NCBI GenBank assembly: GCA_001275005.1
Contig: JWZX01003315.1
Span: 1 to 42,032 of the forward strand
DNA length: 42,032 bases
Direction of reading: 5' to 3'
DNA from: Chrysochromulina tobinii
Taxonomy: Eukaryota
A model generated the notes under the pieces. The model saw nothing but the letters and a program-made list of their open reading frames with translations. It ran no database searches and had not been told where the DNA came from. Positions 1 to 22,904 of this stretch are shown in pieces (within the stretch, counting starts at the first letter, position 1; every line of letters begins with the position of its first letter). The position numbers and the translations under genes were made by a program.

Positions 1-173
1 TACATCGAGATACACCTCAAGATACGTATCTCGAGCCCTACTTGCGGCCGCGCTTGGATACCCCCAAACCCCCGAGATACGTGTCCCGGTAAAGGTGTTA
101 GCACGGGTTGTGTCGGCCACACCTCCGTCCATAGCGACAGTGGCCCTCGTGCTTGGGGGTCCGGAGCGTGTGC

Positions 174-226
174 GCGCGTTGTGTTGAACAGCAGCAGCAA
201 TTGCGCGTTGTGTTGAACAGCAGCAG
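174..226 (+). repeat. 24-bp direct repeat gcgcgttgtgttgaacagcagcag (174-197 and 203-226) upstream of first gene
   Basis: Two exact copies read directly from the sequence. Confidence 0.9.
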
Positions 227-264
227 GTGTGCCTCTGCGTTGCGGACCGGGCCGTTCGGAAACA

Positions 265-1047
265 ATGGGGATGGGAAAAACGGCGAGGGTCCATATCGTG
301 GGCGGCGACGAGGAGGCTCGAGCCCGCGATGACGCCATCGAAGAGGCCATCAAGGCCACCACCAAAAGCAAGTATCTGGCACAGGACAAGGAAGTCTCTT
401 TTTGGCAGGCTCACTGGCTCTTCCTGACCTTTGAATGGCTCAAACTCGGCGACAAGGTGCATACCACGGAAAGCGGCAACACGATCAAGGACAATTTCGT
501 CAACGTCGGTGTCGTCGCCGCACTTCTCTTCACCATGGTTACATTAGACGCGACGGCTGTCGGTCCAGAGATCGCGCAGTTCTCCTCTGGCATCGTGACC
601 GAGGAGACTAGCGGCAAGGTCTACGTGTTCATCAACTCTCTTGCAATGTGGTTCCTCTTTGGGGCGGTGCTCCACTCCATGTACCTGTACTGCCAACTCA
701 GCGAGCTCCAGACCTCCACCGAGGTCGGCTACTGGTCCGAGAGCATGGGATTCATCATGTTGAATTTCCACTTGTTCTACCTGGTTGTCGGTTTCGTCTT
801 GTACATCTTGGCCCAAGCGTGGCTCGTCCTGACGTATCTCGGCCTCATCGCGGGGTTCGTCTCCATCGGTATTGCGATCTTCTTCATGGCCGTTCCCCTG
901 GTCTACGCCTCGACCAAGAGCGTCCAGGCGATGTACAATGCCAGGCAGAAAATGGTGAAGGCCGAGGCAACGCTCGCGAAGCCCAAGGACTCGAGCGTTG
1001 AGGGAGGTGACCATGCTGTGCGACCGGAGATGGAGACGCCAACGTAG
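265..1047 (+). CDS. Multi-pass (about 4 TM) membrane protein of unknown function
   Basis: First ATG at 265 in ORF 229..1047; hydrophobic stretches VNVGVVAALLFTMV, VYVFINSLAMWFLFGAV, FYLVVGFVLYILAQAWL, IAGFVSIGIAIFFMAVP; strong GC3 bias. Confidence 0.75.
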   Translation: MGMGKTARVHIVGGDEEARARDDAIEEAIKATTKSKYLAQDKEVSFWQAHWLFLTFEWLKLGDKVHTTESGNTIKDNFVNVGVVAALLFTMVTLDATAVGPEIAQFSSGIVTEETSGKVYVFINSLAMWFLFGAVLHSMYLYCQLSELQTSTEVGYWSESMGFIMLNFHLFYLVVGFVLYILAQAWLVLTYLGLIAGFVSIGIAIFFMAVPLVYASTKSVQAMYNARQKMVKAEATLAKPKDSSVEGGDHAVRPEMETPT

Positions 1048-1429
1048 CCGTTGGCGAGGATAAGGCGCGTCGGGATGGACGCGAGAGCGAGAGACAGAGA
1101 GAGAGAGCCTGACCCTGAGCCTGTCGCTGACCCTTGGCCTATCTCAGCCCTCGTGACGGTGGAATGTGACTTCAAATCAAGGTGGAGCGGAATAGTGTGT
1201 AGAGGCCAGAAATAATGCGCCTCCCAGGTACCGGTACCCTATTACAGGTACCCTAATAGCAATGCCTAATAGGCCCGCGGCAACTTCTCTCTCTCACTTC
1301 ACAGACACGTCGCGCGCGGTCTCGATGAAAGGAGCGATGGTGACGCTGAGGTGCCCCACCTCGGAAGCCCAAACATGGTCAGGGGCCGAGTCTTCACGAC
1401 TTGACTTTGACTTCACAGACGGCTTCAAA

Positions 1430-2770
1430 ATGCCCCTCCTACTGCTCGTGCTCTCCATCGGGGTCGCGTCTCAAGCTGGAGTCTGCCCCGCGAACTGCGC
1501 TGAATGCCCGGGCAGCAGAGGCGGGTGCGCGCCGATTGAGGCCGGTATGGCAGTCGATTGCTGCGGCGATGGGACAGCGTGTGGCACAGGCTACACTTGT
1601 GGCCAGCATACCAGACCGGACACAATGGTCCCAGAGCCGGCTTGCATCGCGCGGACATGGGAGGCCAGCGCCGCCAACGACGATGATACGCCACTTCCAA
1701 TGGGCACGGCCGGCTGGCAGCCCCGCTACAACCTCTGCGACCCTCTATGGCCTGATGCAGAGTCGTGGTTGTTGTATCTCGACTTGGGCGACGGCTTGCG
1801 ATTTCCCTATTACAGCAACGTGGGGCCAATCGCGGGCGCGTTGGCAGGCGTCGAGCTCGCGCTGATCGCGCAGCACGGTGCCGGCCGTAACGCCGACGAC
1901 TACTTCTGCAGCGCGGCCAAGGCGGCCAACATGTCGAAGCTCGCAGGCCGCGTAGCCGTCTTTGCGCCGCGCTTCATGCAGAAGGAGGATAGCGCTCCGG
2001 TCGGCGTGGCTTGGTGGAACGAAAGCTACCCAAACGGCTGCTGGAGGTGCGGCGGGCAGAGCGATCCGTCCGCCTCCAGCTCCGGAGCCACCGTGTCCTC
2101 GTTTGAAATTCTCGATCGGATGGTGGGCGAGCTGCTGAGGACGGCGCGACGCCTGGGGGTGAGGAGCAGCCTGCGCGCGATCACGATCGCGGGTCACTCG
2201 AGTGGCGGCCAGATTGTGCAGCGGCACGCGATCTATTCTCACGTGGAGCCGCCCGACATAGCGTCTGCTGGCGTCCAACTGCGCCACGTACCTGCCAACC
2301 CCTCAAGCTACGCTTACCTCGATGCGAGGCGCTGGGTGCACAACTGGTCGGAGCTGCGAGTGCCTGATGACGCGATGATTGCCAGCTGCCCCACGTACAA
2401 CGCCTGGCACTTCGGGCTCGAGGGCGGGCTACCACCGTATGTGAACGGTACTCCCGGAGGCAACCGCGCCGCGATCGAGCGCTTCGGCAAGCGTGACGTC
2501 GTCTATCTGCAAGGGCACAACGACACGTGCCCGTGCAACCCTGGCGATGCGGGGTGCAGGTGTGACTCACACGATCTCGAGGTGACCTGTGCAGACGAGA
2601 TTGGAGGGCCGTTCCGACTCAAGCGTGGCCGGCTGTACTTTGAAGCGCTCCAAACAGTGTTCGGCACCAACGGCAGCACGCACGCGTTGTACGAGGTGGC
2701 GAATGTGGGGCACGACCACGCGATGATTTGGCAGAGCGATGTCGGCCTGCATGCGCTCTTTGACTTTTGA
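1430..2770 (+). CDS. Secreted alpha/beta-hydrolase-fold protein with Cys-rich N-terminus
   Basis: Signal peptide MPLLLLVLSIGVASQA from ATG 1430; oxyanion-type HGAGRN; nucleophile elbow GHSSGG; ANPSSY; C-terminal VGHD His motif. Confidence 0.75.
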   Translation: MPLLLLVLSIGVASQAGVCPANCAECPGSRGGCAPIEAGMAVDCCGDGTACGTGYTCGQHTRPDTMVPEPACIARTWEASAANDDDTPLPMGTAGWQPRYNLCDPLWPDAESWLLYLDLGDGLRFPYYSNVGPIAGALAGVELALIAQHGAGRNADDYFCSAAKAANMSKLAGRVAVFAPRFMQKEDSAPVGVAWWNESYPNGCWRCGGQSDPSASSSGATVSSFEILDRMVGELLRTARRLGVRSSLRAITIAGHSSGGQIVQRHAIYSHVEPPDIASAGVQLRHVPANPSSYAYLDARRWVHNWSELRVPDDAMIASCPTYNAWHFGLEGGLPPYVNGTPGGNRAAIERFGKRDVVYLQGHNDTCPCNPGDAGCRCDSHDLEVTCADEIGGPFRLKRGRLYFEALQTVFGTNGSTHALYEVANVGHDHAMIWQSDVGLHALFDF

Positions 2771-3116
2771 TGAGTCGCCGACGCGTGTTTCGTCTTTCAT
2801 TCTAAACAAGGAAACGGGCGAGTCAAACCATCCAAAATCCCACCCGGAGCTATCTCGAGGAGCTATCAGAACGTTCTGACGGATACATGCTGACGGTGAC
2901 GCGGATCGGCACGACTCGTATCGTTTACACCGCGCCGGCCCCGTGCCGACACGTTGTAGTACTGTACTACAAAACACACACACACACATTCAGCCACCCT
3001 TTGAACTTGCTCCGATGTGGCTAGCATGTCTCTGCTCGCACGAGCCAAGCCGTCCGACCCGTCGATTAATCTGTCGAGCCGCAGTGGATTCCTACAACGT
3101 CGCTTGGGCTCCATCT

Positions 3117-5837
3117 TCATGGCTGCATCTCTGGCCACGCACCAGCCCAAGACGATGTTGGCGCGGCGGCGCAAAAGCCGCCAGTGCGCATGACTGGAGG
3201 TGAGGTGGCCTGAGGGGGTGGCACCGGCGGCAGCTTGCTGGGGGAAGACGCTAACTTCGGGGGGGAGGAGGGCGCAAGTTTGGCGGGCCTGCCGAAAAGC
3301 TCTGCGAAGAGATTGGCCGAACTTTTTTCCTCTGCCTCCTCCTGGTCCTCTTCGTCCTCCTCGTCCTCGTCCTCCTCGTCCTGGTACTCTTCCTCCTCTT
3401 CAGACTCGTCGTCCGTCTCGTACCCTGTCGGCTTCATGCCCACTTTGAAGCCCATGTCGATCGGCGTGACGCACCGTGGGCGAAGGACGGTCGGCGTCGT
3501 CGGAAGGCCGAGCAATGGACCGACCCTCGCCGGCAGCCCGCCATCTCCCCCGAGTCGAGGGGTCACCTGTCCCGGCCGAGCGGACGGGGGAAGCTCACGC
3601 GCGAGCTCATCGCGCAGCGCCTCCTTCTCGGCCTCCTTCGACGCCATCGCAAAAGCCGCGGCAAAGGCCGCGGCACCCGCCGGGACCTCATCCTCCTCAT
3701 CCTCTTCGTCGGATGCAACACCCCTAGCAGCCTCGGCCGCAGCCTTCTCGGCAACAGCCTTCTCGGCCTCAGCCTCCTCGGCCGCAGCCGTCTCGGCCGC
3801 CGCCTTCTCGGCCGCCACTGCCTCATCAACTGCTGCCACCGCGACCTCCTCAACTGGATAAACAATGGGAGCCGCCCGCGATGCGGCGCCGAGAGCCACG
3901 GAATTAACGGAACTGGGAACCACCAACACTGCCGCTTTCAGCGCGCGCTGTGAACGCTCCTTGAACCGGACGAGCTCCGACTGCCTCTTCTTCGCCGCAA
4001 ACGTGGCCCACTCGATCTGAATCACAAGGGCGGCGTGAGCCTCACGATGCTCGAGGCGCAGCGCGAGCTTCTGCCGAGCGAGCCCCTGCAAAGTGGACGC
4101 GAGTCGCGAGGCCGAGGTGACCATGCTGAGCCGCTGCCGCTTGAGCTCGGCTCCGCCCTTGCGTTCCTTGGCCGGCGTGATGCACAGAGCACCTCCCTTG
4201 ACGTCGCAGACGGCGGCGACGTGGTGGGGCAAGCCGCGCAGCACGAGCGCGTCGCCCACAAGGAGCTTCATAGCATTGAGTGCGCTTTGATTCTTGACGG
4301 GTACCGTTCGCTTGTTGACGGTCGTGCGCACGACCGTGACCGACTTTGGCAGCGCGAGCTGCCCGACAGTCATGTTATTCACACGCTTGTCGACCGTCGC
4401 AGTCATCTCCAACGCCCCTGTGCTCAGCACTCCCAAGGGAGAGAGAGGGAGAGCTGGCTTGCGCTTCTTCGCCTCCGGCGCCGCACCGAGGTACCGGTTG
4501 ATGCTCGCCGTGTGCGCTTTGCTCGTGGCCGCCTGCGTGGTGTAGCGCAAGCTCAGGCCCGGATGCGAAGTCGCCCACGCGCGCTGCGCCGCCAGGCTCT
4601 CAATCGCATCCTCTGCGGCCGTAGGCTCGAAGCATGCTTTGGTGCAGATTGGCTCGTTGTGTACAGCTGCGAGCAATGCAGCCATCAGCCGCCGCGAGCG
4701 CAGCTTGGCCGCCCGCTGCGTGGCTCGGTGTGCCTCTAGCATCGGCTTCGTCTCGCGGCGCTGCAGCTGGCCACGCCGCACGCACTGCAGTCGGCGTGCA
4801 GCATCATGAATACGCCGCTTGGCCCGTATGCTTTCCATCTTGTGACGCACGACGGGAACAAGAGCCTTCTTGAGAGTTTCGGCCGCGCAGATGAGGGCTT
4901 GGCGCTCCCGTTGGATCTCTTTCGTGATCTTGTCGCGATCGTGCCGCGGAGCGAGCACGAGCTTCTTCGACTTTTCCACCGCCACGGCCGCAAGCTGGTA
5001 TGGCAGGCCTTTGAGGACAAGCTCGTCACCCATCTCCACCTTGGTCGAGGGCAGCGTGCCCACGTTGGTTTTATTGCTCTTGGGACGGCGCACGGCTACG
5101 AGCGTCACGTTGCGTGAGAGCTGCAGCGCCGAGACCGTCGAATGGTCGTGAGCCGCGTCGACTTGCACCACAAGCTCCACCGGCTTCTCATGATAGAGTA
5201 GCTCCGCGGGGGATCTGTTCCAGCCAAATGTCTTGTTTACGCGAATCGCGTACGACGCGGCGGCGAGCCCACGTGCCCTAGGATCCAGCATGCGCAAGAG
5301 GAGCTTGTTGGCCCCGGCCGATACATCCGCCTTGAGAATTGCGTCGCCAACGACTTTCTTGAATGATCCTTCGGACGAGGTAGCTCCTCCAGCACCCTTC
5401 TTGAATGATTCGGCCTCCGTCGGCTTCGATGTCGGCGGCCTTCGCGGCGAAGGCGCCTTTCCTTTTGGCGCCTTTGCTGGCGTGCTTTTGGCCTGCTGCG
5501 ATCCACCCTGCGCAGCCGTGGTTCCACTCGTCGTCGGCGCCTCCCCTTTTCCAGCATTCGCTCCCGTCGGCCGTGCTGGTGCGGCTTCCTCCGTCGGCTT
5601 CGATGTCGGCGGCCTTCGCGGCGAAGGCGCCTTTGCCTTTGGCGCCTTTGCTGGCGAGCTTTTGGCCTGCGATCCACCCTGCGCAGCGGTGCCACTCAGC
5701 GCCTTTCTCCCTGGTGACGCTCGGCCCACCTCATCCTTCTTTGATGGCGTTTGAGGCTTTGCGGGCGACTTGAATCGACTGGGAGCTTTAGCAGGTGAGG
5801 CATTCTGCTCCTTATGCGGCTTTTGTGCCGGCGGCAT
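3117..5837 (-). CDS. About 906-aa protein with Pro/Lys/Ser-rich N-terminus, two TrkA-C (RCK_C)-like modules, IQ-like motifs and acidic tail
   Basis: Likely start MPPAQK at 5837; two similar modules ...TVSALQLSRNVTLVAVRR...GDELVLKGLPYQL and ...TVGQLALPKSVTVV...GDALVLRGLPHHV; AARRLQCVRRGQLQRR. Confidence 0.65.
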   Translation of the reverse strand: MPPAQKPHKEQNASPAKAPSRFKSPAKPQTPSKKDEVGRASPGRKALSGTAAQGGSQAKSSPAKAPKAKAPSPRRPPTSKPTEEAAPARPTGANAGKGEAPTTSGTTAAQGGSQQAKSTPAKAPKGKAPSPRRPPTSKPTEAESFKKGAGGATSSEGSFKKVVGDAILKADVSAGANKLLLRMLDPRARGLAAASYAIRVNKTFGWNRSPAELLYHEKPVELVVQVDAAHDHSTVSALQLSRNVTLVAVRRPKSNKTNVGTLPSTKVEMGDELVLKGLPYQLAAVAVEKSKKLVLAPRHDRDKITKEIQRERQALICAAETLKKALVPVVRHKMESIRAKRRIHDAARRLQCVRRGQLQRRETKPMLEAHRATQRAAKLRSRRLMAALLAAVHNEPICTKACFEPTAAEDAIESLAAQRAWATSHPGLSLRYTTQAATSKAHTASINRYLGAAPEAKKRKPALPLSPLGVLSTGALEMTATVDKRVNNMTVGQLALPKSVTVVRTTVNKRTVPVKNQSALNAMKLLVGDALVLRGLPHHVAAVCDVKGGALCITPAKERKGGAELKRQRLSMVTSASRLASTLQGLARQKLALRLEHREAHAALVIQIEWATFAAKKRQSELVRFKERSQRALKAAVLVVPSSVNSVALGAASRAAPIVYPVEEVAVAAVDEAVAAEKAAAETAAAEEAEAEKAVAEKAAAEAARGVASDEEDEEDEVPAGAAAFAAAFAMASKEAEKEALRDELARELPPSARPGQVTPRLGGDGGLPARVGPLLGLPTTPTVLRPRCVTPIDMGFKVGMKPTGYETDDESEEEEEYQDEEDEDEEDEEDQEEAEEKSSANLFAELFGRPAKLAPSSPPKLASSPSKLPPVPPPQATSPPVMRTGGFCAAAPTSSWAGAWPEMQP
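5411..5690 (-). repeat. Imperfect internal duplication (about 105 bp, two copies) encoding TAAQGGS(Q)QAKS.PAKAPK.KAPSPRRPPTSKPTE
   Basis: Copies at about 5411-5519 and 5585-5690, visible in DNA and protein. Confidence 0.85.
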
Positions 5838-6049
5838 GGTCGCGTCTGGATTGGACGGTCGTCGCACTGCCCCTCCAGTAGCGCGTGCAACGCCGCCCCT
5901 TTCACTTTTGGAAAGCCGAGCACGAGGCTGGCTGCTCAGCACAACGAGTTTTGTAAAACTGAGGGCCATATCCACGTTAGATGACCGGGTGACCCAAGCA
6001 ACCTGGCTTATTACCAGGCCGTTACTCGACACTTTGAGTTCATGAAAAA

Positions 6050-8065
6050 ATGCCCGTGACGGCGCCTGCGATGGCGACGACGACGCCGACGGCCACGGCC
6101 ACGGAGACTCACAACTTCGACGTGGTAGTGATAGGAGCAGGCTTTGTGGGCGTCTCAGTCGGCGCCGGCCTCGCAAGCCACGCAGGGGCATGCCGCGACA
6201 ACGACGGCCTGGACCACAGCCGCGTGCAAATCATCGAGCAGGGCCCAGAGTGCGGGGCATTCTGGCTCGGCGGGCACGAGGCGTTGTCGCTGCACAGTCC
6301 GCACCACCGCCTGCCGCACGACGGTGGGCTAGCGTACGACTACCCGATGTTCAAGACTAAGCACGAGGTGCGTGACTACATGAACCGGTATGCCCAGAAC
6401 AAGGGACTCGCACAATGCATGTCCTTTGGCGAGACGGTGCTGCGCATAAGCCACGAGCCCGAAGTCGACAAGGACCGGCCGTGGCGCGTCGCTACTGACA
6501 AGCGCGAACTCCGAGCGCGGCGCGTCGTCGTGGCCACGGGGCTCAACCGGCAGCCCCATATTCCCCACATCCCAGGCAGCGAGGAGCGTGCCGCACACGG
6601 CGCGCGCGCCTTGCGGCATTCGTGGAGCGTGTCGAGCTGCGACGAGTACAAAGGCGAGCGCGTGCTGCTCGTGGGGAGCGGCAACTCCGCGGCCGAACTC
6701 GCCGTGGCGCTGCACCATTCGGGCGCCAAGTCGATCGACATTCTGGTGGACGGGCCGCGCCACTTTGTGAGACGCAGCACGATGGGGCAGATCTTTCGTC
6801 TCTTTCCGTACTTGAGCCTGTCGACGGAGAGCATGGTGCACGATCTGCACCGGTGCACATTTGGCGAGCACACGGCGGATGCCAAGGTGGTCACCGCATG
6901 GGAGCGCTTCCAGGAGGGGCAAGATGAGTTCATAAGGCTTCTTTCCGTCGATCTCGGCCCCTTCGGTATCCAGCGGCCACCGAGCTGGCGGCACGCCGAG
7001 CAGCAGAGCGTCGCTCCTCGCATCCCCGTGTACGACGTGGACCAGCAGCGGTTGCCGCGCTCTGCCGGAGAGGGCGGCATCGTCGGCGGATCCGCAGCAG
7101 TTGGCTACGGCGTCATCGACCTCATTATGAGCGGTGCTGTCGGCATCAAGCGAGGACGCATCCAGCGCTTCACGAGCACCGGCGTCGTCATCGAGGAGGG
7201 GGCCTCGCGTCACGTGACAGCGCGGGCGGGAGCCACCAAAAGTTTGACAGCGGAGGCTGCAACGATGAAGGCGGCGACGGCGGAGGCTGCGACGGCGGAG
7301 GCTGCGACGGCGGAGGCTGCGACGGCGGAGGCTGCGACGACGGCCCCGCCGGGAGGGACGCACCACGCCTACGACGCAGTCATTCTCGCGACCGGCTTTC
7401 GCCACCGCATGGCCGACTTTCTGTGCGCTAAGGACGGGTTGCTTCACACGGCCGCCTCCTTTGGTGCCGCGGACGACGCCGAGGGTGCTCCGATCATCGA
7501 CAGCTGCTCGCGCTCGCGCGTGATCGACTCCATCTACTTTGTGGGCATGGACCAATTCAGGTCGACGGCCTCTCTCGATTGGCCTCCCTGATGACCTCCC
7601 TGATGACCTCTGATTGCCCCCTCTGATTGCCCCCCCCGCTTCAGGTCGACTCTCTCGATTGGCCTCCCTGATGACCTCCTTGATGACCTCTGATTGCCCC
7701 CTCTGATTGCCCCCCCCCGCTTCAGGTCGACTCTCTCGATTGGGCCCGTGCTCGGGTATCGTGGTTACGACGTCGGCGCGGCGATCGCGACCGATTTGTA
7801 CGGTCCGCCCACGAACCCGCTGCGTTTCCCCTCCCTACCGGCCGACGAGCAAGAAGGGAGCAACCCGATCCTGACGCCGAAGCACGCGCTCAAGGTCCTT
7901 GCGGCTGGGGTACTTGTGGGGATAGCTGGCACCCTCGTGATGGGGGCGCTCAAGCGGAAGCCGCGGCCGACAGCTCTGTCAGCCGCCCGAGGCCGCACGG
8001 TCCTCGAGAGCAGGCTAGCCCGCTTCAGCACCGAAGAGCGGCCTCTGACGAAGCCGAGGCCGTAG
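6050..8065 (+). CDS. Class B flavin-containing monooxygenase (FMO/YUCCA-like) with C-terminal membrane anchor; exons 6050-7560 and 7726-8065 (616 aa)
   Basis: FAD motif VIGAGFVG, VVATG, NADPH motif LVGSGNSA, ILATGF; splicing 7561-7725 joins DQFR-STLSIGPVLG in frame; hydrophobic ALKVLAAGVLVGIAGTLVMGAL followed by KRKPR. Confidence 0.85.
7561..7725 (+). other. Spliceosomal intron (165 bp) made of two tandem GT-AG units, 7561-7644 and 7645-7725
   Basis: GT...AG ends, in-frame stop at 7589-7591, removal restores the frame; each unit starts with a copy of the downstream exon start and ends ttcag. Confidence 0.85.
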
Positions 8066-8309
8066 TAAAAGTAGCAGGAGCAAGACGAGAGCCTGTGCTC
8101 CTCTATGATCAACCCAGCAAGAGACTCTGTGCTCTGTGCGCTGCCTCGTCCGGTGAACGCACTTGAGAATCGGAGAGAAAACAAGGTTGCACGCTTCGCA
8201 CTAACTGTACGTTCTTTTTTACAAATGTACTCAAATCATCTTCTTGACGCATGCAATGATTTTTCCTCACATGAAACTTGCATAAACGGGGAAAGCTCAA
8301 GTTCTTGAA

Positions 8310-9371
8310 ATGCTGCTCAGCAAATGCGCCGTGCTTTTGCACAGCAGCGATCGCAATGAGAGCCGGCCCTTTTGGCGCCCGATCTTGGTGACACTGGATC
8401 GTCACTTCCCGCCCGGTCTGTGCGATCTTCACTTTTCGTATGGCGTCGCAGACGCTGAGGCGCACGCTGCTCTCGATGGGCTTCAGCAGCCGTTTACACT
8501 CATCCGTCGCGGCGATGGCGACCAGCTCCTTGGATGGAGCGGAGCACTGCTCAAAGATCTCGAACGGCTTACGGCTTACACCTGGATTTTCCATCTGATG
8601 GACGACGCCATCATCCCCGATCCCATCTCAAGGTTTTCGATCTCCGCAGTGCTCGATGTTGCCCGGAGACGCAACGCGTCCACCATCGCGTTAAACTACC
8701 GAGCCATCTATTACTGGCTCCGCCACACAGTCCTTCACCCTCAAGGTGCCACAGACCATGTGCAGCTTTTCCCACTGGCCTTGGTGACCAGCTCCGAGGT
8801 TGCCTCCGCGCCCGGCGTCAACTCCACACTCAACTTTTATCTTGCCCACCTGGGAAAGTTTACCTTCTCGCGATTCGTGGTCCAGCAGAACTTTGCGCTC
8901 TGGCGACGCGACGCGCTTGCCTGGACACTCCGCGACGCAGGCCCCCAGTCCAACCCACATGAGTGGGAAGCCCGCTTCGCCAACTATGCGAACCTCATCA
9001 GATGGCCTGGAGCCTCACAGGCCCTCGCTGTCTGGTTTCGAGGGCCTGACGGCATGCTGGGCGTCGAGGACACGAGCAGCCTCGGCCGAATCAAGGGCGG
9101 ATTCCCGGCGTGCGCCTGGCTCCGTGCAGCCTCGCGCGTCGGCCTGTCACCCGACTCGGTCCCGGGCGGCAAGGAAGCTGCCTCGCAAACCGGCTACAGG
9201 TTTTGCTACGCGGACGGCTTGCACGGGCTTGGAGCCCAGTTTCTGACGGCAGTGGCCTTGCAGCCAGGGCGCTGCGGCTGCGTGCACGACCACAGGGCCG
9301 TTTCGTCCAGCACTTGTTCTTGCCATGATGCTGGCCTGGAACTGTTGAGATACAACTCGAGCAGTCTATAG
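8310..9371 (+). CDS. Putative GT-A-fold glycosyltransferase-like protein
   Basis: 353-aa ORF; VLLHSSDR...FW, WSGALL...L, hydrophobic strand plus acidic pair IFHLMDD, LWRRDAL...PHEWE; pattern-level resemblance only. Confidence 0.5.
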   Translation: MLLSKCAVLLHSSDRNESRPFWRPILVTLDRHFPPGLCDLHFSYGVADAEAHAALDGLQQPFTLIRRGDGDQLLGWSGALLKDLERLTAYTWIFHLMDDAIIPDPISRFSISAVLDVARRRNASTIALNYRAIYYWLRHTVLHPQGATDHVQLFPLALVTSSEVASAPGVNSTLNFYLAHLGKFTFSRFVVQQNFALWRRDALAWTLRDAGPQSNPHEWEARFANYANLIRWPGASQALAVWFRGPDGMLGVEDTSSLGRIKGGFPACAWLRAASRVGLSPDSVPGGKEAASQTGYRFCYADGLHGLGAQFLTAVALQPGRCGCVHDHRAVSSSTCSCHDAGLELLRYNSSSL

Positions 9372-9643
9372 CGCATGGATCCGTCGTCCAAACGAGCCTT
9401 CGTGCTGCTCGTCCACCGCAGAGAGCGGTCGACCGTCCCGGCACGGTGAAGCACGGTGGTTGTGGTCGTCTAGGCTCTAGCTGCGCGATGAGGGTTGAGG
9501 CGACCTGACAGGGTCCGGCGCTGTAACATCGGTGTACCGTACTGTACCCGAGCTGTGCGCGGGTGATGACCTTTGGCCCGTTATTTTTAAGAACGTTGAA
9601 CAGGGTCTAGACAGTTTACCTTTTGTATAGTACTCCATACTGA

Positions 9644-11854
<2,211 letters not shown>

Positions 11855-11855
11855 C

Positions 11856-12035
11856 TACCGGTAACGCGTGTCCCGTGAACGTTAACACGACAGACGCGAC
11901 AACCGTGCTACGGCACTGTTACTGCCCGCTCAAAATACACACCGTGTGAACGTTAACACGACAGACACGACAACCGTGTGTGTCCCGTGTGTGTCCCGTG
12001 TGTGTCCCGGCTCCCCCCGGTGTCTTACCGGTAAC
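11856..12035. mobile_element. Small non-coding repeat element (MITE-like candidate) bounded by taccggtaac, with a 33-bp internal direct repeat and gtgtgtcccg tandem array
   Basis: taccggtaac at 11856-11865 and 12026-12035; gtgaacgttaacacgacagacRcgacaaccgtg at 11875-11907 and 11946-11978; 3' end recurs at about 35665-35720. Confidence 0.5.
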
Positions 12036-12501
12036 AACATTCACAGCTCACCACCGAACACGACACGTACAACAATTTTTCTCCCTCCCTAGCCGAGCAC
12101 GCCACATCATACACACAAGTTCCACAGCAAACGACCGTCGCGCACATGGGCCACATCCACGCGTCATCACCGAAGCCACGAGCCCTCTATACCTGCCTGC
12201 CTGCCTACCTGCCACACTGCGCCCCTGTTGCTCTTCCCGAAATGCACCGTTCGACGCGAAGAGTCGTGTCCACTCGAACGCGGCGCGAGAACGCGGCAAG
12301 GGTCGTAAAACTGTCGTAAAAGCTGCGACCACTTGCCAAAAATGGTCTCTTGCTGGCATTGGTCATGCCGTCCCCCCGTCCCATGCCTTGTCCATTTCAC
12401 TTCCCACATCTCCCTGCGCTGGTTGGCGCAAGCCTCTCATCTCTCAAGGTTTCAGGACGGAGTGCATGCAGAGCATGTCCATTCGACACGTCCGTCGGAG
12501 A

Positions 12502-15500
12502 TTACGTCGGAGATTGCTCGACCTCGCGCTCGACTTCGTCAACTTCTTCATCGCTCGCGCCGGCCTCGATAAGGAGACGCATGCAATTCAGATGGCCGCG
12601 CAACGAGGCCAGCATGAGAGCCGTGTGGCCGCATGCATCGCGCGCGTCGAGCTCGACATCCTCGGTTCCGAGCAACACGCGCACGATGTCTAGATAGCCC
12701 TCGAAGCTCGCGATATGCAGCGCGTTCTGGTTGCGCCCGTCGCACACACCCACCTTGGCGAGTAGCGATCGGAGGCAATCAGCGGCAATCAGTGGACCAT
12801 TGGAGGCAATCAGAGACCATCAGAGACCATCAGAGACCATCAGAGGCAATCAGAGGTCATCAGAGGCCATCAGAGACCATCAGAGGCAATCAGAGACCAT
12901 CAGAGACCATCCGAGGACAATCAGTGGACCATCCTAAGCCTACCCGGGCGCCGCGCCACACAAGCGCCTGGACGGTCGCAAAGTGGCCCTGCTGGCAAGC
13001 GTGCAGCATGGCCCAGTCCTGCTTGCTCTGGCTGGAACAGCGCCAGATGGGTTGCATGCCACGCACACGCACGCGCTCGGACCCGGGCACGGGATCCTCG
13101 ACGGTACTCGGCCTGTGCACGACCACGTGCGAGAACTGCATCGAGACGACATCAGACGGGTTAGGGTGAGGGTTACCATAGGGTGAGGGTCGAGGCTACC
13201 TGCATCGAGACGACCTCGACGTAGGCGCGCAGGTCGAGTAAGATCGAGGGCAATCAAGGGCAATCAAGGGCAATCAAGGGCGATCAAGAGCAATCACGTT
13301 ACATCAATTATGGGCATTCAACGGAGATCGCACCTGCATCGAGACGACCTCCAGGTAGGCGCGCATGTCGAGGGCGTACGCGTACCATGTGCGCCAGCAC
13401 CGATGGAGCTGCCGGCTAAGTAGGTACCCGACGCCCTGCAAGAACAGCCTCGTCTTGCGGCGACTCAAGCTCCAATAGGCGATCCAGGAGAGCCATGCGC
13501 GTGCGAGATGCCGTCGGCCTATCAGGTGGATCAGCACGCGAGTCATACTGCCGAGCGACTTCCGAAGCTCCATGGCGGTCATGGTGGCGTGCCGCCAGTT
13601 ACCAAAGGCATGCGCGGCGCGCCGCATCGCTAAAAAGGTGACGACCTTGCTCACCTAATGAGGGAGGTCATCAGAGGTCATCAGTGGCCATCAGTAGCAA
13701 TCATTCATCAATTCGAGGGCGACCTCGCGCACCGTCCGCATCGACGCCTTGAGCGCCGACGCGGACTCGACCCAAGCGTTCCAGCCCTTGTGGAGCGGAC
13801 GATGACGGAAGTGGCTCATGCTACTCTGGATGGCTTTGAGCTTGAGCGTGCGCATCTCGTGGTACGCGATCCAAGCTGCGCAGCCACGCGCGAGGTGGCG
13901 GCTCGACAGCTGCCGGATGACGCGCGTCATCAGCGAGCGCAAGCGCTCACTTGCTCGCTTCGTCACGCACAGCGCCTTCCAGCTGCCGAACGCGCGCGCG
14001 CCATGCCGGTTCAAAAAGGAGCCCACGCCCATGCGGACGAGTTGCACCTGATGAGGGAGGTCATCAGAGGTCATCAGGGGCAATCCGCGGCAATCAATCA
14101 TCATCGCGCCCAAATCGCGCCCAGGCGGACGAGTTGCACCATGTGCTCGCGTCCCGAGATCAGATCCACCCAATTGACGAACCCCCTCGCCATATGGAGG
14201 CTCGTCAAGTGCATCAGGCTACGCGTCAACGACGCCCGCAACGACGCGCGCGCCGCGGCGCGCCGTTGGACGTGTGAACGCCAGCTGTGAAACGCCTTGG
14301 ACTGGCCGTGATGGAGTGTGAAGCGCAAGCCTTGGCGCATGAGCGCCGAGAAGGTGCGCGCATGGCCGCCGTACTGCGAGCTCTTGCCCGCCGCCTCGGC
14401 CCAGGAATTCCATCCCTTACCCAGATGCAGGCTGCGCAGCAGCGCGACGGCTCGCGTGACGTGGCGCACGTTGGCCTGACGAGCGTCGACGAAGGCCACC
14501 CAGCCCGCGACGGCACGTGCCTCGCGCTGTCTCCTCAGGACGCGCGCCGTGCGGCCGATGAAGGTGAGCAACTGAAGCTGCCTCGAGCATGCCTCGGCCC
14601 ACGTGCGCAGGGCGCGTGAGAGGCCCCGATGACGCTGGCTGCCCACGACACGTTGGAGTGAGTTGCCCACTTCGCTCTTTCGCCATTCGAACTCGATCCA
14701 GAGGGCCTTCCACACATTGAAGCCGCGCGCGAGGAGGTGGTCGGAGAAGACTCGAACGGCGTCCGTGAATAGAGCCGCGCCGCGCCGGCGCGCCAAGCGC
14801 ACCTTCGTTGCATGCAAGAGGGAGGCAATCAGCATGCAATGGGGAGGCACTCAGCATGCAATGAGGGAGGCACTCAGCATGCAATGAGGGAGGCACTCAG
14901 CATGCAATGAGGGAGGCACTCAGCATGCAATGAGCGCACCTTCGTTGCATGCGCCCACGACGCGAAGCTGCGAGAGAGCGAGTGAGAGGTGAACAAGGCG
15001 ATGCCCTTGCCGAGCAACTCGAGCGCCTCGGCGCGTGTCGCAACCAGCTCAGCCCACGCGTTCCAGCTGCGAGCCATCTGGCGGTGGACGAGATATGCGA
15101 GCATGCGCCGTAGCGACGCGAGCAGTGCTCCCTGCTCCTCGACGCGCTCATGCCACGCATGCCAGCCAAGAGCCATGAGCCGATCGGCCATGCGCCCAAT
15201 CGCGCGACGCGTGGCGATGAATTGGGCGTCGGAGGCGTAGTGGCGTTCGGCCCACGTCGACCAAGCGCGAGCGAGTGCGCTGGAGAGCAAGTGTGCGAGG
15301 GCTCTGCCGACGCGCGCACGCCCCGCCCCGCTGAGTGTGGAGGCCTCCATCCACGTGTTCCACGCGCACGAGAGGGTGCGTGCGCTCAGATGGCTGATCC
15401 CGTGCCTCATTACGTCAGCTGCGTGAGCGTGCGAACGCCAGGTATCGGCCCACGTGTGGTACCCACGTGTCAGGCCGCGCTTGGTGAAGCGGATGAGAAT

Positions 15501-18500
15501 CGCCGACGCCTTCATCAGCTCCGCCCCAATGGCCACCTGCCGCTCCCAGCGAGCGCGCCATACGAGCCAGCCGCGTCCGAGCTCATGCTGACACAAGAAC
15601 GAGAGGACGCGCTTGGCGAGGCGACCACGCGCCGCCCATGCCTCCCAAGCGCGCAGGCCGAGCTTGGCCTTGCGCTCGAAGACGAAGCTGCCCGCCGAGC
15701 GCAGCCTGTGTTTCTCATCCGCCCAGAAGTCAAGGGCGTCCAGCCAGCAGTTCCACGCCCGAGAGATCTGGTGGCCTGTGAGTAGACCGATGGCGCGGCG
15801 CAGTGCCGCGAATGCGTTCTCACGCGCGGAGACGGCGGCGCGCCACGACGACCACCCATACTTGAGCTTGCGCAAGAGCAGGAGGGTGAGCACGCGACGC
15901 ATGGCCGCGAGGCGGTCCGCGCTCTCCCGAGCGGCACAGCATGCGTCTACCCAGCCGCCAAAGCCGCGGCCCATCCGGTGGTGGATCATGTACAAGAGAC
16001 CGCCTCGCAGTGTCTCGCGCATCGCGCCGAGCTCGAGCGCGAACAACGTCCACGTATTCAAAGCTCGTGCGACATGCTGGTGCGAGAGGTACTGCACGAT
16101 GCGTCGAAGTGCGTCGAGCGTACCAGCACGCTCGACGGCGGTCGCGCGCCACGTGTTCCAGCAGCGCGAGAGCGACTGCTGCCTCAGCAGCCGCAGAGCA
16201 TGGCCGGTCAGGGCATCTGCACCGCGCTTGAAATCGCGCTGGAATCGTTGCGATTGCGTCCAGCTCGCAAACGCCCACGCCGCAGCCAGGTGCAGAAAGA
16301 AGCTGGCGGCCCGTTGCACGAGTCGGACGGTCACTGATCGAACGCCACAAACCTCGCGCCACTTGCGCCAGCCTTGCGAGACGCGGAGAGTGATCGCCTT
16401 GCGCACGCCCTGGTGCACCCAGCGCGCGAACTGGCGGCCACGCTCGCGGCACTCAGTCCAGCGAGTCCAGCCACGCACTTTGAGGCAGTTGATCAGGTAG
16501 CGCAGCGCGCACTTCGTCATCTGGCGGCAGGACGCGAGTTTCAGGCACCACCTCGAGAAGCCGACTGCGAGCTTTCGGTTGACCAGGAAGCCTTGCTGTG
16601 GCCAGGCGCTCGAAACCATGTGAATCGGCACCGGCGGCCGCCGGCTCGCACCGAAGAGGCCCGCACGCGACGACGCCACCGAAGAGGCCCGTGATGACAG
16701 GTCCATCGGCGATTGTAGCCACGGCGGCGCGCTACCCCACATCGCACGCGGCGATGCCTTTGAGAGCGGCGGCGTTGTTGCGCCACGAGGCAGCGCACCA
16801 GTGCCACCGGTGGGCATCGTGCAGGCGTTGCTGGGGGGGGGCGTGCCGGCGCGCGACGATGGTGACATGCGTGCCCCCATGTATCCGCCCATCATGACAC
16901 TCGTCTTCAAGTCTCGTGACCCTCGGCTTGAGCTCGGCACCGCTTCGAACGAGGTGGCCATCGAGGCGGCCATAGAAGAGATGATGGAGGCGCTAAAGAC
17001 GGTGGTGAAGGGGGTGGTCTGAACGATGGACATCTGCGACACCGTGGTGTTCTCCTCCTCATCTGCACGCGCGCTGTCGCGCGAACCGCGGCGCGACACT
17101 CCCTCAGACGAGCGCCCCGAGGGCGGTGTGGGCCAGCCGCGCGTTGTCGCCTCCTCCGCCTCGGCCAAGAAGGCAGCTGCCGACGCGGCCAAGGTTGCGT
17201 CTGCTTCGATGCGATCCTTGGCCTCTGAAGCCCTCCGGGCCGCCTCCTCCTCGGCCTTTGCTTTGATTGCCGCTGCTTCCTCCGCCTTCTGAAGCCAAGC
17301 TGCGCGGAGGAGAAAGGCCGCTGCAAGGCGCCCCTTCTCATCCTTCTCCTCCGCCGCCGCCTTCGCTGCCGCGGCTTCGGCGGCGACACGCTCCTCCTCC
17401 TCCGGCAGGGAAGGCGGCAAGGAGTAGGAAGGCAGTCGCTGGGAAATTGGCGACGCCTTTGCTGCCGCTGCTGGAGGGGTACCACTCCCTGCGAGCGGGA
17501 ACGCCGTAACCAAGGCGTCCAATGCAGCCGCAAGCCGTGCGTCCTCCTGCTCCTCCGCCACCCTGACTGCGGCGGCCTCTTTGGCTTTCTCAGCTTTGGA
17601 AGCAGGCTTCTTTTCCATCGCAAGGTGAGCCCTCTCCTCCGCCTCGAGGCCAAGCTTGCGCTTGGCCTGCTGGACGCAACTCTCGAGGAGGGTGCAGAAG
17701 AACGTGTAGAACTCGTCGATCTGGATGAAACCGTCGCCGCTCGAGTCGCTCCGCGCAAAGAGCTCTTCACATCGCTCGTCGCTCGGCATCGCCAGCTCGA
17801 AGCGCTTGCACACCTTGCCCACGCACGCAATCGTCTCGCCCCTGTCGAGCGTGCCGTCGCCGTTGGCGTCTGCAGCGGCGAACTCGGCGTTGCACAGCGC
17901 GCGCCGCACAGGCTCGGTGGACAGAAGGAGGCTTGCCCATTCGACACCCTTGGCTTGTGCCACCTCTCGGAAGGGGAGTGTCGACGACGACGGAGTGCGC
18001 TTGTAGAGGGGCGCGGGCGGCAGCGTGGGCGGCGGCGTCGACAGGGGGGCGGTGCAGAGCGTCGAGGGAGAGGGGAGGGAGAGCGTTGAGAGGCGCTGCA
18101 CCATGCCGACTTCCTCTAGCGGAGTCCAGGAGTGCGCAGATGCCGCCGCCGCTGCTGCCGCCGCTGCCGCTGCCGCTGCGGCCATGCGTGCTTCAGCTGC
18201 CTCGGCCGCTTCCGCCAGGGCTGCTTCGACCTCGGCCTTCGGCTTGAAGTGATCCTCGACGACGGCAAGGTGCATGCGATTAGTAACACGGACGGCACCT
18301 TCACGTGACCGCGCGGCATCCTGTGGGCTTGAGAGCGTCGACGGAGAGGGTGCCGCGTTAGCCGCGAGCGTGGGCGGCAATGGGCGCGACGCCTTATTGG
18401 CATGCGACGGCTTGGTCGCCGCCTCGTCCTCGGACGTCGCCGCCGCGTGTCGCGCGTCGTACTCCGACTTAGCCTTCTTGACGCAAGACTCGAGCACGCA

Positions 18501-18929
18501 CTTGAAGTACCGCTGGTACTCATCAACCTGAATCAGCCCGTCGCCTGACTTATCGCACAGGGCGAAGAGCTGGGCGCACTTGTCGGCGAGCGGCATCGCG
18601 AGATGAAACCGCACGCACATTCGCTCCACGCTCGTGTACGCCTCGATCTTGCCGAGCGTGCCATTGCCGTCAGCGTCCTGCACCTTGAACTCGGCCTCGC
18701 ACAGTCGGCGGCGCTCATCCTTGTCGCTGAGCACGGCCATGGCCCACTGCATGCCCTTGAGCTGCGCCTCATCCTTGGCCACAGCCTCCTTCACAGACGC
18801 CAGGCTGGACTTGAGTTTTTTTATTTCCTTGACCTTAGCAATCGCCCCCAGCTTATCGCCCTTGGTGCGCAAGTGCACGGCCTCAGCCTTTAGAGCCTCG
18901 CACGTGGCCTCGGTCGCGGCGGGCTCCAT
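12502..18929 (-). CDS. About 1910-aa protein: two EF-hand pairs, low-complexity linker, long array of Sfi1-like W-rich repeats, C-terminal ankyrin repeats; exons 18929-14940, 14802-14140, 14047-13733, 13654-13334, 13135-12944, 12753-12502
   Basis: EF loops DADGNGTLGKIE, DKSGDGLIQVDE, DANGDGTLDRGE, DSSGDGFIQIDE; many L.R.W..W repeats; ankyrin NALHIASFEGYLDIVRVLL and TALMLASLRGHLNCMRLLIEAGA; five phase-0 GT-AG introns join six ORF-track pieces in frame. Confidence 0.85.
12754..12943 (-). other. Intron (190 bp) filled with 10-bp tandem repeats (CTGATGGTCT/CTGATTGCCT)
   Basis: GTAGGC...CCAAG; removal joins WRGAR-VGVCDG within an ankyrin repeat. Confidence 0.85.
13136..13333 (-). other. Intron (198 bp) made of two stacked GT-AG units: 13333-13200 and 13199-13136
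   Basis: Both units end in a copy of the upstream exon end GTCGTCTCGATGCAG; removal joins VVSMQ-FSHVV. Confidence 0.85.
13655..13732 (-). other. Intron (78 bp), repeat family core
   Basis: GTGCGC...CCTCCCTCATTAG with in-frame stop; joins ASMRT-VSKVV (an alternative donor 9 nt downstream is also possible). Confidence 0.75.
14048..14139 (-). other. Intron (92 bp), repeat family core
   Basis: GTGCAA...CCTCCCTCATCAG; joins GREHM-VQLVRM in frame. Confidence 0.85.
14803..14939 (-). other. Intron (137 bp) containing about 5 copies of a 23-bp minisatellite CATTGCATGCTGAGTGCCTCCCT
   Basis: Exact 20-bp repeat GCATGCAACGAAG|GTGCGCT spans both junctions; joins HATK-VRLARR. Confidence 0.9.
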
Positions 18930-19160
18930 TACTCTTGCGGATCTCTTGCGTGCGGCCGTTCACACTACCAAATCGAGGTCCGAAATAATTGCATGCCCAC
19001 GAGCACCCTCCCGGAAGTCAGTCGAATTTACACATATCCGGAAGTCATTCAGTTACCCCTTCCTCAGTCAATTCACACTCCCTTGAAGAGATTCACGAGG
19101 AGGACGCCCAGGCAGGGGTGAGGCCAGCAAGAGAGCCCGATCGCGCACTTTCCACCATCC

Positions 19161-20168
19161 ATGCATTTGTCCGGCAGAAGCGCGCTCATCGACATCACCT
19201 TCATCGATGCGCACCTCTTCCTGTGCGAGAGCACCGGCTCGCGGCCGTCGACGCGCTGGGTGTTTCTCGATCAGCTTGCGAAGGATTGCGGCGTGCCTCT
19301 TGCAGCATGCGAGTTGGTTGGTGACTTTTCAGCGGCAATGCACAGCATCACCGCTGAGGCGGATTCGCTGCGCGATGCGGGCATGGTCGGACACCACCAG
19401 GAACTTGTTAGCCAAATCGAGCACCTGCGTGAGCAACGCGCCGAGTGTTTGCAGTCATCCATCCGCCGATCAGCTTCCCGCATTAAGCCTTCGGCAGTGC
19501 GCCTTGGACCGTCGTCATCGTCGTTGTGGGATGTGGCCGCCGTCGCAGCCGAACTCAAGCGTGAGCACTGCTGCGTGATCGACGACTTTGTGGGCGCCGA
19601 CGAGGCGGCGCCGCTTCGGGAGCATCTGGGCTCCATGCGCTCGTCGGGTGCGCTGAAGCCCGGAGAGGTGAGTGCCGGGTTGCAGCAGCAGCGGCGCGGC
19701 GACCTGATGGCGTGGGTGAGCACTGAGGCGGGGGCACAAGCACCGCCGCTGCGTGCGCTGCTCCACTCCATAGACCGTCTCGTCGGTGCGCTCGGCCAGC
19801 AGCCTCTGGTCGCCGACGACCTCGGCCCCCAACGGATGCTCTGCCGTCATGAGATGCAAGTGACGTGCTACCCAGGCAACGGGGCGCGCTACGTGAAGCA
19901 TGTGGACGACCCGCACGGCTCGCGAGGCCGCGTACTGACGCTCATCGCGTACAGCAACCCGCGATGGGAGCCCGGCCACGGCGGTGCGCTGCGGCTGCAT
20001 GTGCCGAGCGGCGCGCGCGACGTGGAGCCACGTGACCGACGGCTCGTCCTCTTTTGGTCCGACGCACGCGCCCCGCACGAGGTGCTCCCCGCGCACCGCG
20101 AGCGGTACGCCGTCTCGGTGTGGTTCTCCGATGCACAGGCGGTCGCCGCGGGCGCGGCGAGTAAGTAG
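19161..20168 (+). CDS. 2OG-Fe(II) dioxygenase, EGLN/PHD prolyl-hydroxylase-like
   Basis: RGDLMAW, CYPGNGARYVKHVD (HxD), GGALRL, RLVLFWSD, PHEVLPA (distal His), RYAVSVW (2OG-binding Arg). Confidence 0.85.
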   Translation: MHLSGRSALIDITFIDAHLFLCESTGSRPSTRWVFLDQLAKDCGVPLAACELVGDFSAAMHSITAEADSLRDAGMVGHHQELVSQIEHLREQRAECLQSSIRRSASRIKPSAVRLGPSSSSLWDVAAVAAELKREHCCVIDDFVGADEAAPLREHLGSMRSSGALKPGEVSAGLQQQRRGDLMAWVSTEAGAQAPPLRALLHSIDRLVGALGQQPLVADDLGPQRMLCRHEMQVTCYPGNGARYVKHVDDPHGSRGRVLTLIAYSNPRWEPGHGGALRLHVPSGARDVEPRDRRLVLFWSDARAPHEVLPAHRERYAVSVWFSDAQAVAAGAASK

Positions 20169-21515: not shown

Positions 21516-22904
21516 TCAGTCGACTGATGCCCACCGTACGTCGTTCGTGGGGTGGGGTCGAGGCGGCGCATGTAGCTCTACTGAAGGAGGCAGTGCTGTC
21601 GCTCCGCTCTGATCGAAATCGATCAAAAGGCTGCCCTCGTCTACTGAAGGGGGGGGCAGTGCTGCCTCGCTGCTCTCGTCGAAATCGATCAAGAGGCTGC
21701 CCTCGATCTGTTGAAGCAGCTGCCTGCCCTCGAGCCGCCTCCTCGCCTCATGCACACTCAGCACGCCATCCACTGCGATCTCTTCAATGACCTCTGCCGC
21801 CGCAGGAGCATCCGAAGCGGATGATGCCGCCGCCTCCGTCTCTTTATCGGAGGCGGTCGTGCGCAAAGCCGCCTTCGCAGTCGCGATGACGAACTCTCGT
21901 CGTCCTAGCATCGTCACGTTCAATGCTGTAAGCGCGGCCTCGCCCACTGCCGTAATGCGACGTAATCAGTGGCGATCAGTCGCAATCAGTCGCAATCAGA
22001 CGCAATCAGACGCAATCAGACGCAATCAGTGGCAATCACCTGCCGTGCATGCGGCGTGCGAGCACTGCCCCGCCTCGTCGCCCCACTTGTGGCGCACCGC
22101 CGCCTCGACCACCGCGCCGCTCGTCTTACCGATCTCGACCGCGGAATGTTCGAGCTCCTGCCCAATCGTACAGATGGCGGAGATCGAAGCACCGCCGATC
22201 ACCTTAAGTGCCGCGACGGTCGGGGTATCCGGCTGGTTCGTAGCAAGATGCTGAGCTGCTGCCGTGCCGATGGCGCCGGCGACCGCAGCGACGCCCGAGC
22301 CCACCATGCCCGTGAAGCGCAGGGCGGCGTTGGCGACGGTCCGGGTCGTGTTGACTACCTGTATCACCTCGGGAGCCACGAAGGCCTCCCTCTCATCTGG
22401 CTGCACGTGGGTTCGGATCTCGGACAGAGCACACACGAGCCCGTCGGTGATGACGGCGGCGCCGCTTTTGATGCACCGAGCCGCCGCTTGGCCGCCAATC
22501 TGGATCGACATTGCCGCCTCCTCTGCCACCGCTGCCGCAAACAAGCCACCCTCATCGACATCGTTGGAGAGCTCTGACGGCGGAGGCAGACCCAGCATCA
22601 TCGCAAGCCGTTCGCGCGCAGGAAAATCAGAGTGCTCAAAGCGCAGCAATGTGATACCGCCGCCTTGCATGGAGCAGCCCAGCTCAATGCAAGGGACGGT
22701 CCAGAAGATGGCACAACCGTCATCGTCGAGGCTGCGGTCCCACACATCGACGGCTTGGTTGTCAGGTCCATCTGGTGATGGCACGTGTACCAGCCGTCTG
22801 CCTTTCACGATCAGCGATCCCGTGCATTGGACGAAGTGGGTGCCGTCGCCGAGGAGCGCTACGCGAGCGACCGCCTCAAGAATGTGGAATTCGGACGGCA
22901 CCAT
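21516..22904 (-). CDS. Senescence-domain (spartin/ERD7-like) protein; exons 22904-22040 and 21946-21516 (431 aa)
   Basis: Small-residue amphipathic helices and VRHKWGDEAGQ...AVGEAALTALNV, typical of the spartin C-terminal senescence domain; phase-1 intron removal restores the frame. Confidence 0.75.
21947..22039 (-). other. Intron (93 bp) of CTGATTGCGT/CTGATTGCGA 10-bp repeats
   Basis: GTGATT...ACGGCAG; in-frame stop at 22026; ends in a copy of the upstream exon end (CGCAT..ACGGCAG). Confidence 0.85.

Follow-up and report, generated by a model that had tools for sequence, protein, structure and literature searches.

How does a spliceosomal intron come to consist of two nearly identical halves set end to end, each with its own splice sites, and how is such an intron removed? 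These questions are raised by a 165-nt GT..AG intron (7561-7725, phase 2) in a gene for an FMO-like flavin monooxygenase of the freshwater haptophyte alga Chrysochromulina tobinii; the window analyzed here is the entire 42,032-bp contig that carries it. We consider it probable that a lineage-specific intron, gained with a 23-nt target duplication, was duplicated locally in tandem to give the present one, and that this doubled intron is removed mostly as two consecutive short introns via an internal AG/GT, a mode of removal predicted from its sequence. It is not settled how new spliceosomal introns originate, and the duplications associated with known intron-making elements are of 3-9 nt.

Structure and splicing of the doubled intron

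The host gene lies on the plus strand and encodes an FMO/YUCCA-like protein, for some of whose relatives JGI uses the name indole-3-pyruvate monooxygenase. Its open reading frame (ORF, 6038-7591) contains the Pfam domains Pyr_redox_3, Pyr_redox_2, FMO-like, and Lys_Orn_oxgnase (E 7.6e-17 to 7.1e-14), with curated cut-offs passed by PF13738 (61.9 bits, cut-off 30) and PF00743 (52.9 bits, cut-off 22). The intron and its flanks are composed as follows, with a slash marking the splice boundary.

6050..7560, plus strand: exon 1, 503 codons and the first two bases of an AGG Arg codon, ending ..caattcag; covered by RNA contigs
7556..7582, plus strand: direct-repeat copy 1, ttcag/gtcgac, a 4-nt insertion, and tctctcgattgg; carries the 5' splice site of unit 1 (GT 7561-7562)
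7561..7644, plus strand: intron unit 1, 84 nt; opens GTCGAC.. and closes ..CTTCAG, with four CTGAT motifs and a C8 run between; in-frame TGA at 7589-7591
7583..7639, plus strand: filler 1, 57 nt; (cctccctgatga)x2.3, (cctctgattgccc)x2.2, a C run, and gc; Tandem Repeats Finder rows 7583-7610 and 7607-7634
7640..7662, plus strand: direct-repeat copy 2, 23 nt, ttcag/gtcgactctctcgattgg; its internal AG/GT (7643-7646) is the zero-length exon
7645..7725, plus strand: intron unit 2, 81 nt; built like unit 1, with t at 7680 and a C9 run
7663..7720, plus strand: filler 2, 58 nt; one substitution and one extra C relative to filler 1
7721..7743, plus strand: direct-repeat copy 3, 23 nt; AG 7724-7725 is the 3' splice site in the mRNA, and the remainder is the start of exon 2
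7726..8065, plus strand: exon 2, the final Arg-codon base and 112 codons; STLSIGPVLGYRGYDVG.. followed by a hydrophobic stretch; stop TAG at 8063-8065

A preliminary description of this DNA had noted two near-identical units of 84 and 81 bp, each running from GTCGAC to CTTCAG and meeting at an AG/GT at 7644/7645. Direct reading of the sequence confirms both the units and the junction (ag/gt, 7643-7646). Tandem Repeats Finder places the repeat at 7570-7743 with a period of 80, 2.2 copies, 97% matches, and a score of 334, and a 29-nt core occurs exactly twice in the window, compared to 0.00 expected from shuffles. Exact repeats link the units at 7570-7599/7650-7679 and 7601-7637/7681-7717, and an exact 33-nt repeat (7630-7662/7711-7743) extends into exon 2. 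Beyond the 4-nt insertion, the only differences between the units are a single substitution (c at 7600, t at 7680) and the length of the C run, 8 versus 9.

Each unit was also said to open with a copy of about the first 18 nt of the next exon. This is exact for unit 2, which opens with the same 18 nt as exon 2 (gtcgactctctcgattgg, 18/18 equal), whereas in unit 1 the copy is interrupted by the 4-nt insertion and spans 22 nt. The repeat is wider than had been described, in that exon 1 and both units end in the same 5 nt, ttcag (7556-7560 in exon 1). The sequence ttcag/gtcgac..tctctcgattgg is present at all three junctions, crosses both exon borders, and brackets the CTGAT-rich fillers; over 11 nt the internal junction (ttcag/gtcgac, 7640-7650) is the same as the junction between exon 1 and unit 1. 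Neither exon 1 nor exon 2 contains anything corresponding to the 57-nt filler. Both units have their own GTCGAC donor, four CTGAT motifs, and an AG 18 nt past the last CTGAT. No inverted repeats are found within 7530-7770, so the intron has no terminal inverted repeats. Its RNA folds no better than shuffles (z = +1.66), and an Rfam scan of 7300-8000 for an RNA gene in the intron gave no matches at E <= 1.

Splicing was followed in six RNA runs (X11-X16), compared as assembled contigs, which drop rare forms. A joint of 7560 to 7726, skipping the 165 nt from GT to AG, is present in contigs of four of the six runs and absent from those of X12 and X16. The joint was reported as 7555->7721 ("cut +5"), with 11 letters fitting either side. 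In X14 (polyA RNA) it lies in a 702-nt contig with a shorter side of 247 nt; the shorter side is 79 nt in X13 and 19 nt in each of X11 and X15. For the X14 contigs, differences from the window are listed at 14 positions over 6000-8300, so X14 represents a different strain that makes the same joint. X11 also contains contigs in which the intron is unspliced (7537-7613 and 7633-7743); these may stem from pre-mRNA or from DNA present in the library.

The reading frame agrees with the RNA. Unless the intron is removed, the frame of exon 1 continues into the TGA at 7589-7591. The protein of exon 1 ends ..YFVGMDQF plus two bases of the Arg codon and exon 2 opens STLSIGPVLGYRGYDVG; the homologues P0006, P0007, P0009, P0010, P0014, and P0036 are uninterrupted through DQFxSTLSIGP, reading straight over the site as DQF[RQK]STLSIGPVLGYRGYDVG. 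Exon 2 is conserved in these six proteins and in three distant homologues recovered as DNA (L004-L006). The segment 7561-7725 is a U2-type GT-AG spliceosomal intron whose removal restores the conserved frame. Its earlier assignment to the FMO gene is upheld, with RNA contigs removing exactly these bases and homologues reading across the site.

We also considered whether the doubling is an artifact of assembly. A metagenome scan yielded seven loci, comprising three from the same organism (L001-L003) and four distant homologues (L004-L007), the last of which ends before the site. L001-L003 are three further assemblies from mixed-culture metagenomes in which the gene is 100% identical, and each is identical to the window at 261/261 aligned bases across the intron. 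A contig of DNA run X1 (7633-7710) bridges the end of one unit, the 18-mer, and the start of a unit, as does a 110-nt contig of RNA-library run X11 (7633-7743). Such an arrangement is possible only with two units, which makes an assembly duplication unlikely, and together with the identity of L001-L003 it bears out both units.

Comparison with relatives suggests the age of the intron. In L004, L005, and L006, DNA contigs that are 42-54% identical, the intron site is uninterrupted and the Arg codon is CGT, CGA, or CGC. In two close relatives, P0003 (96% identical) and P0004 (91%), the protein models end at the same place in read-through tails, ..FRSTTSLDWPP and ..FRSTASLDCLTDDLSDDL, in which the insertion-bearing form of the repeat is read as ST[AT]SLD. 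These tails imply an intron at the same position that would open with the insertion-bearing repeat copy. By back-reading, the P0004 tail would correspond to a filler-1-like sequence with about three changes, which would place filler 2 nearer to filler 1 than the relative's filler is. Among eight proteins retrieved by a search with exon 2, none from a close relative continues into the intron at its 3' end. Together, the uninterrupted distant sites and the tails of the close relatives point to an intron gained in the C. tobinii lineage, with repeat copy 1 being old; the intron looks like a lineage-specific gain.

Public records have a protein model of this gene, P0005 (357 aa), that stops within intron unit 1 (..STASLDWPP) and is therefore missing the conserved 112-residue exon 2; in practical terms, the annotation lacks a conserved C-terminal exon. 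P0005 also splices out a low-complexity stretch at about 7200-7370, which is covered by X14 RNA contigs (7190-7308 and from 7309). Within exon 1, 7246-7343 on the plus strand is an in-frame 15-nt coding repeat, GACGGCGGAGGCTGC x6.5, that encodes TAEAA repeats. The relatives P0003 and P0004 have fewer copies, so the length of this array varies between strains.

Repeat-flanked introns elsewhere in the window

Exact direct repeats of at least 14 nt at a spacing of 35-700 amount to 73 runs in the window, a count that includes tandem arrays, compared to 0.26 in 100 first-order Markov simulations. The window contains 12 clusters of CTGAT-type motifs, of which eight were judged intron-like. The other four (29039, 29880, 27378, and 26773) were dropped, their motif matches lying in apparently coding or 27-mer repeat sequence or not being taken further. 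Long flanking repeats are present at five of the eight intron-like clusters, including the doubled FMO intron. Counting the second abutting pair, at least five further introns in the window have direct repeats of 18-34 nt around CTGAT-array fillers. The other four introns with long repeats, and one with a decayed repeat, are listed here with the second abutting pair discussed below.

14939..14803, minus strand: intron, 137 nt; exact 20-nt repeat with ag/gt inside; filler is a 23-mer array; placed by ORF-frame arithmetic
14139..14048, minus strand: intron, 92 nt; 25-nt repeat with 2 mismatches that supplies the GT; placed by ORF-frame arithmetic
13333..13200, minus strand: intron, 134 nt; repeat of 32-34 nt with 2 mismatches, ending CAG; filler head GTGCGATCTCC; placed by ORF-frame arithmetic
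33295..33220, minus strand: intron, 76 nt; 29-nt repeat with 1 mismatch, ending CAG; filler head GTGCGATCTCC
22039..21947, minus strand: intron, 93 nt; decayed repeat of about 13-14 nt; open frame across
13333..13136, minus strand: second abutting pair, intron a (13333..13200, 134 nt) and intron b (13199..13136, 64 nt, GTAGCC..GATGCAG)

Including their repeats, the spans on the minus strand are 14796-14952, 14024-14140, 33220-33324, and 21947-22053. For the intron at 33295, the Pfam TTL profile ends exon A with positions 192-246 and begins exon B with 249-282. No RNA joints were seen for the introns at 14939, 14139, 13333, 33295, and 22039. The remaining two clusters, 13732..13655 and 12946..12766, have no convincing flanking repeat. 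The former is verified by RNA: comparison of the RNA contigs with positions 1-20000 gave one further clean intron joint, 13651->13730, in X14. Other joints in that range were not used, as they have sides of 20-32 nt or are marked "between: not known" and look like cross-matches between repeats. The 3' 27 nt of the intron at 14139 are the same as 13684..13658 of the RNA-verified intron. The splice junction falls at varying places within the flanking repeats, which is expected because any register that removes one repeat and the filler restores the message. A long duplication would accordingly offer many registers in which a GT..AG pair does so.

The second abutting pair lies in a large repeat-protein gene (13136-13365). 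Its two introns meet at an AG/GT at 13200/13199; the exon ends ..EVVSMQ at 13334 and resumes in frame at 13135 (FSHVVVH..). Three copies of gtcgtctcgatgcag are present, at the end of the exon and at the ends of both introns, and the two fillers are unrelated. This pair is supported by the continuity of the reading frame, with no RNA joint seen.

Similar repeats are found at several other places. At 25862-26395 on the plus strand, a 38-nt piece (..ctgattg..ttcctcatcag/gtgggctccct) comprising the 3' end of a putative intron and the start of an exon recurs 479 nt downstream, and next to it lies a 39-nt CTGAT filler between the copies of a 24-nt direct repeat. Direct repeats of 23-36 nt with a spacing of 64-76 nt are present at 11872-11978, 28722-28820, and 37673-37764. 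They may be further instances of this insertion footprint that lie beyond genes or at their margins. Neither these three nor the direct repeats at 21606 and 26309 were assigned to introns, for want of clear splice sites or coding context.

Origin and removal

We propose a gain followed by a local doubling. In the gain, a 57-nt CTGAT-rich filler would have entered the exon and duplicated ttcag/gtcgactctctcgattgg, with the GT of the first repeat copy and the AG of the second serving as splice sites. Since both sites lie in the repeat copies, excision of the filler and one copy gives back the original message without change. The filler together with the repeat would have been doubled at a later time, the flanking repeats allowing slippage or unequal exchange. 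The 18/18 match of the unit 2 18-mer to the exon, and a filler 2 that appears nearer to filler 1 than the relative's filler does, fit such a later local duplication. X1 contigs from other loci match only about 7580-7621 of the filler, with no full-length master copy in view.

The CTGAT motifs in each unit resemble branch points and are predicted to act as such. Generally, the first AG after the branch point is the acceptor used. Unit 1 is transcribed first, and if its branch point is used, the first downstream AG is 7644. Exon 1 would then be joined to the regenerated gtcgac donor of unit 2, and a second reaction would remove unit 2. Should unit 2 leave first, or all 165 nt at once, the same mRNA would be made by every route. 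The RNA-verified intron at 13732 has the donor GTCGCC, versus GTCGAC in each unit.

Several points weigh against this proposal. The order of gain first and doubling later depends on short protein tails and should be taken as provisional. In X1, word depth is 12.5-17.3 in the unit-junction contigs compared to 47-49 in the flanks, which could reflect coverage loss in the repeat or copy-number heterogeneity in the culture. The second abutting pair has two unrelated fillers, meaning that, if the pair is right, repeated insertion at one site happens here too. Lastly, and weakly, no 7560^7645 or 7644^7726 joint (a skip of 81 or 84 nt) is present in the X11-X16 contigs; given that contigs drop rare forms, this absence leaves stepwise removal neither supported nor refuted.

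The last point bears directly on whether the intron is spliced in one step only, the donor at 7561 being paired with the 7725 acceptor by way of a unit 2 branch point, in which case the doubling would simply have made an ordinary intron longer. The RNA contigs show the 165-nt joint alone, and 165 nt is within the range of the other introns in the window (64-181 nt). Conversely, unit 1 is complete and of typical size, is transcribed first, and has four CTGAT motifs with an AG 18 nt past the last; the general first-AG rule predicts use of 7644, and rare intermediates would not show in contigs. We regard splicing in one step only as possible but doubtful.

As to how the doubling arose, the preliminary description had left two routes, an intron that duplicated itself or one that was hit twice. 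The former accounts better for the near-identical fillers, the 18-mers, and the insertion shared with relatives, and the latter is kept alive by the second pair. If the same intron-making sequence entered the same target twice, each duplication would re-create the target beside the first insert, and the second pair, with unrelated fillers behind three copies of gtcgtctcgatgcag, would be an example; the fillers at 13333.. and 33295.. also share the 11-nt head GTGCGATCTCC, a hint of a family. Set against this, filler 2 is almost the same as filler 1 down to its repeat counts, while the P0004 tail filler appears to differ more. No full-length second copy of the filler is found among the X1 contigs, terminal inverted repeats are absent, and two published screens, as far as their supplements list families, give no introner family for this assembly. 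With at most one mismatch, the 11-nt head has three matches in the window, a number reached by 24 of 100 shuffles and thus not above chance. Two independent insertions are, in our estimation, unlikely. A single complex replication or repair error seems more improbable still. Here, a microhomology template switch into an existing CTGAT-array intron would have copied tens of bases and returned upstream, twice in one event. The filler unit (cctctgattgcc) is similar to the last part of the duplicated target (ctctcgattgg), and a likeness or stutter of this sort recurs at other introns with flanking repeats, as at the 14139 junction, where tgggcgcg is repeated. The repeat lengths are variable (18-34 nt) and the fillers lack common ends, unlike the products of a transposase, and a published screen, in its supplement, gives 0 introner families. 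However, the copy in unit 1 has the 4-nt insertion shared with relatives and the copy in unit 2 is perfect, so two events separated in time fit better than one, and there is no direct evidence of template switching and no donor locus identified.

Returning to the gain followed by local duplication, the features in the window could extend it to the genome, although we offer this only tentatively and think it rather less than probable. C. tobinii would make introns by a process other than a classical transposon, pasting in CTGAT-array filler with a target duplication of 18-34 nt. As each event copies its target, sites would be re-hit or re-duplicated, giving abutting introns that are cleared recursively via zero-length exons. 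The variable repeat length, the absence of common filler ends, and the resemblance of target tail to filler are accounted for by template switching or break repair no less well than by a mobile element. The 23-nt footprint, the 18-34-nt footprints of the sister introns, and the 0 families in the screens would together indicate an intron source that would go unrecorded in similarity-based screens. Both the doubled intron and the second pair are natural test cases for the use of zero-length exons by the spliceosome of a short-intron alga, and for whether flanking repeats promote the gain and loss of intron copies; precise loss would use the same repeats.

Comparison with known systems

The internal AG/GT resembles the zero-nucleotide-exon recursive splice sites described for Drosophila ratchet points and for the 336-nt intron of S. 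pombe SPNCRNA.445 (10.1101/226894; 10.1101/006163). In each, a 3' site abuts a 5' site inside what is a single intron as far as the mRNA is concerned, and use of the internal AG creates a donor anew. Unlike those sites, the halves of the C. tobinii intron are copies of each other of 81-84 nt, and the site comes from duplication rather than being a conserved element of a long intron; its stepwise use is predicted from sequence.

The preliminary description called this a stacked twin intron, and in the sense of a stwintron the name does not fit. Fungal stwintrons have two U2-type introns per intervening sequence that are removed consecutively (PMC9024468, PMC8469720). They are nested: a donor, branch point, or acceptor belonging to the external intron is interrupted by the internal one, such that the order is forced. 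In contrast, the C. tobinii units are two complete introns that abut, and removal in any order or in a single step gives the same product.

Introners are similar in other respects. Their target-site duplications are given as 3-9 nt, with 4-nt duplications for introners of a marine Chrysochromulina MAG (PMC9860276). The introner classes of Polarella glacialis are listed with 3-8-nt duplications, and in class 14 both splice sites come from an AGGH duplication (10.1101/2020.10.14.339549); for Amoebophrya, the elements are described as having 3-5-nt direct repeats and inverted repeats (PMC7789003). Like Polarella class 14 and family 5 of the Chrysochromulina sp. TARA MAG (PMC9860276), the C. tobinii intron is bracketed by a target duplication that contains its GT and AG, it is lineage-specific, and its removal restores the message. 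It differs in the length of the duplication (23 nt, and 18-34 nt in the sister introns, versus 3-9 nt), in having no terminal inverted repeats, and in having no family of near-identical copies in view. Other loci in the X1 contigs share only the micro-repeat part of the filler, about 40 nt, and two other fillers in the window have an 11-nt head in common. Supplementary file 7 of a 2025 study (PMC12130899) lists this genome assembly with 0 introner families, and in the 2022 introner supplement, as far as it is available, the C. tobinii assembly appears in the surveyed list only. C. tobinii genes are stated to average one intron (PMC4580454).

A literature search of limited coverage gave no account of an intron doubled in tandem in this way, or of long-repeat-flanked introns in haptophytes. 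The model attributed to Rogers reportedly creates introns by tandem duplication of an exon segment containing AGGT, and in Daphnia repeat-flanked intron gains are said to have been ascribed to break repair. As in both, the start of the C. tobinii intron duplicates the start of the next exon, the duplicated piece contains an AG/GT, and the mRNA is unchanged. Unlike in the Rogers model, 57 nt of the intron are non-exonic filler, of a CTGAT-array kind common to other introns of this genome.

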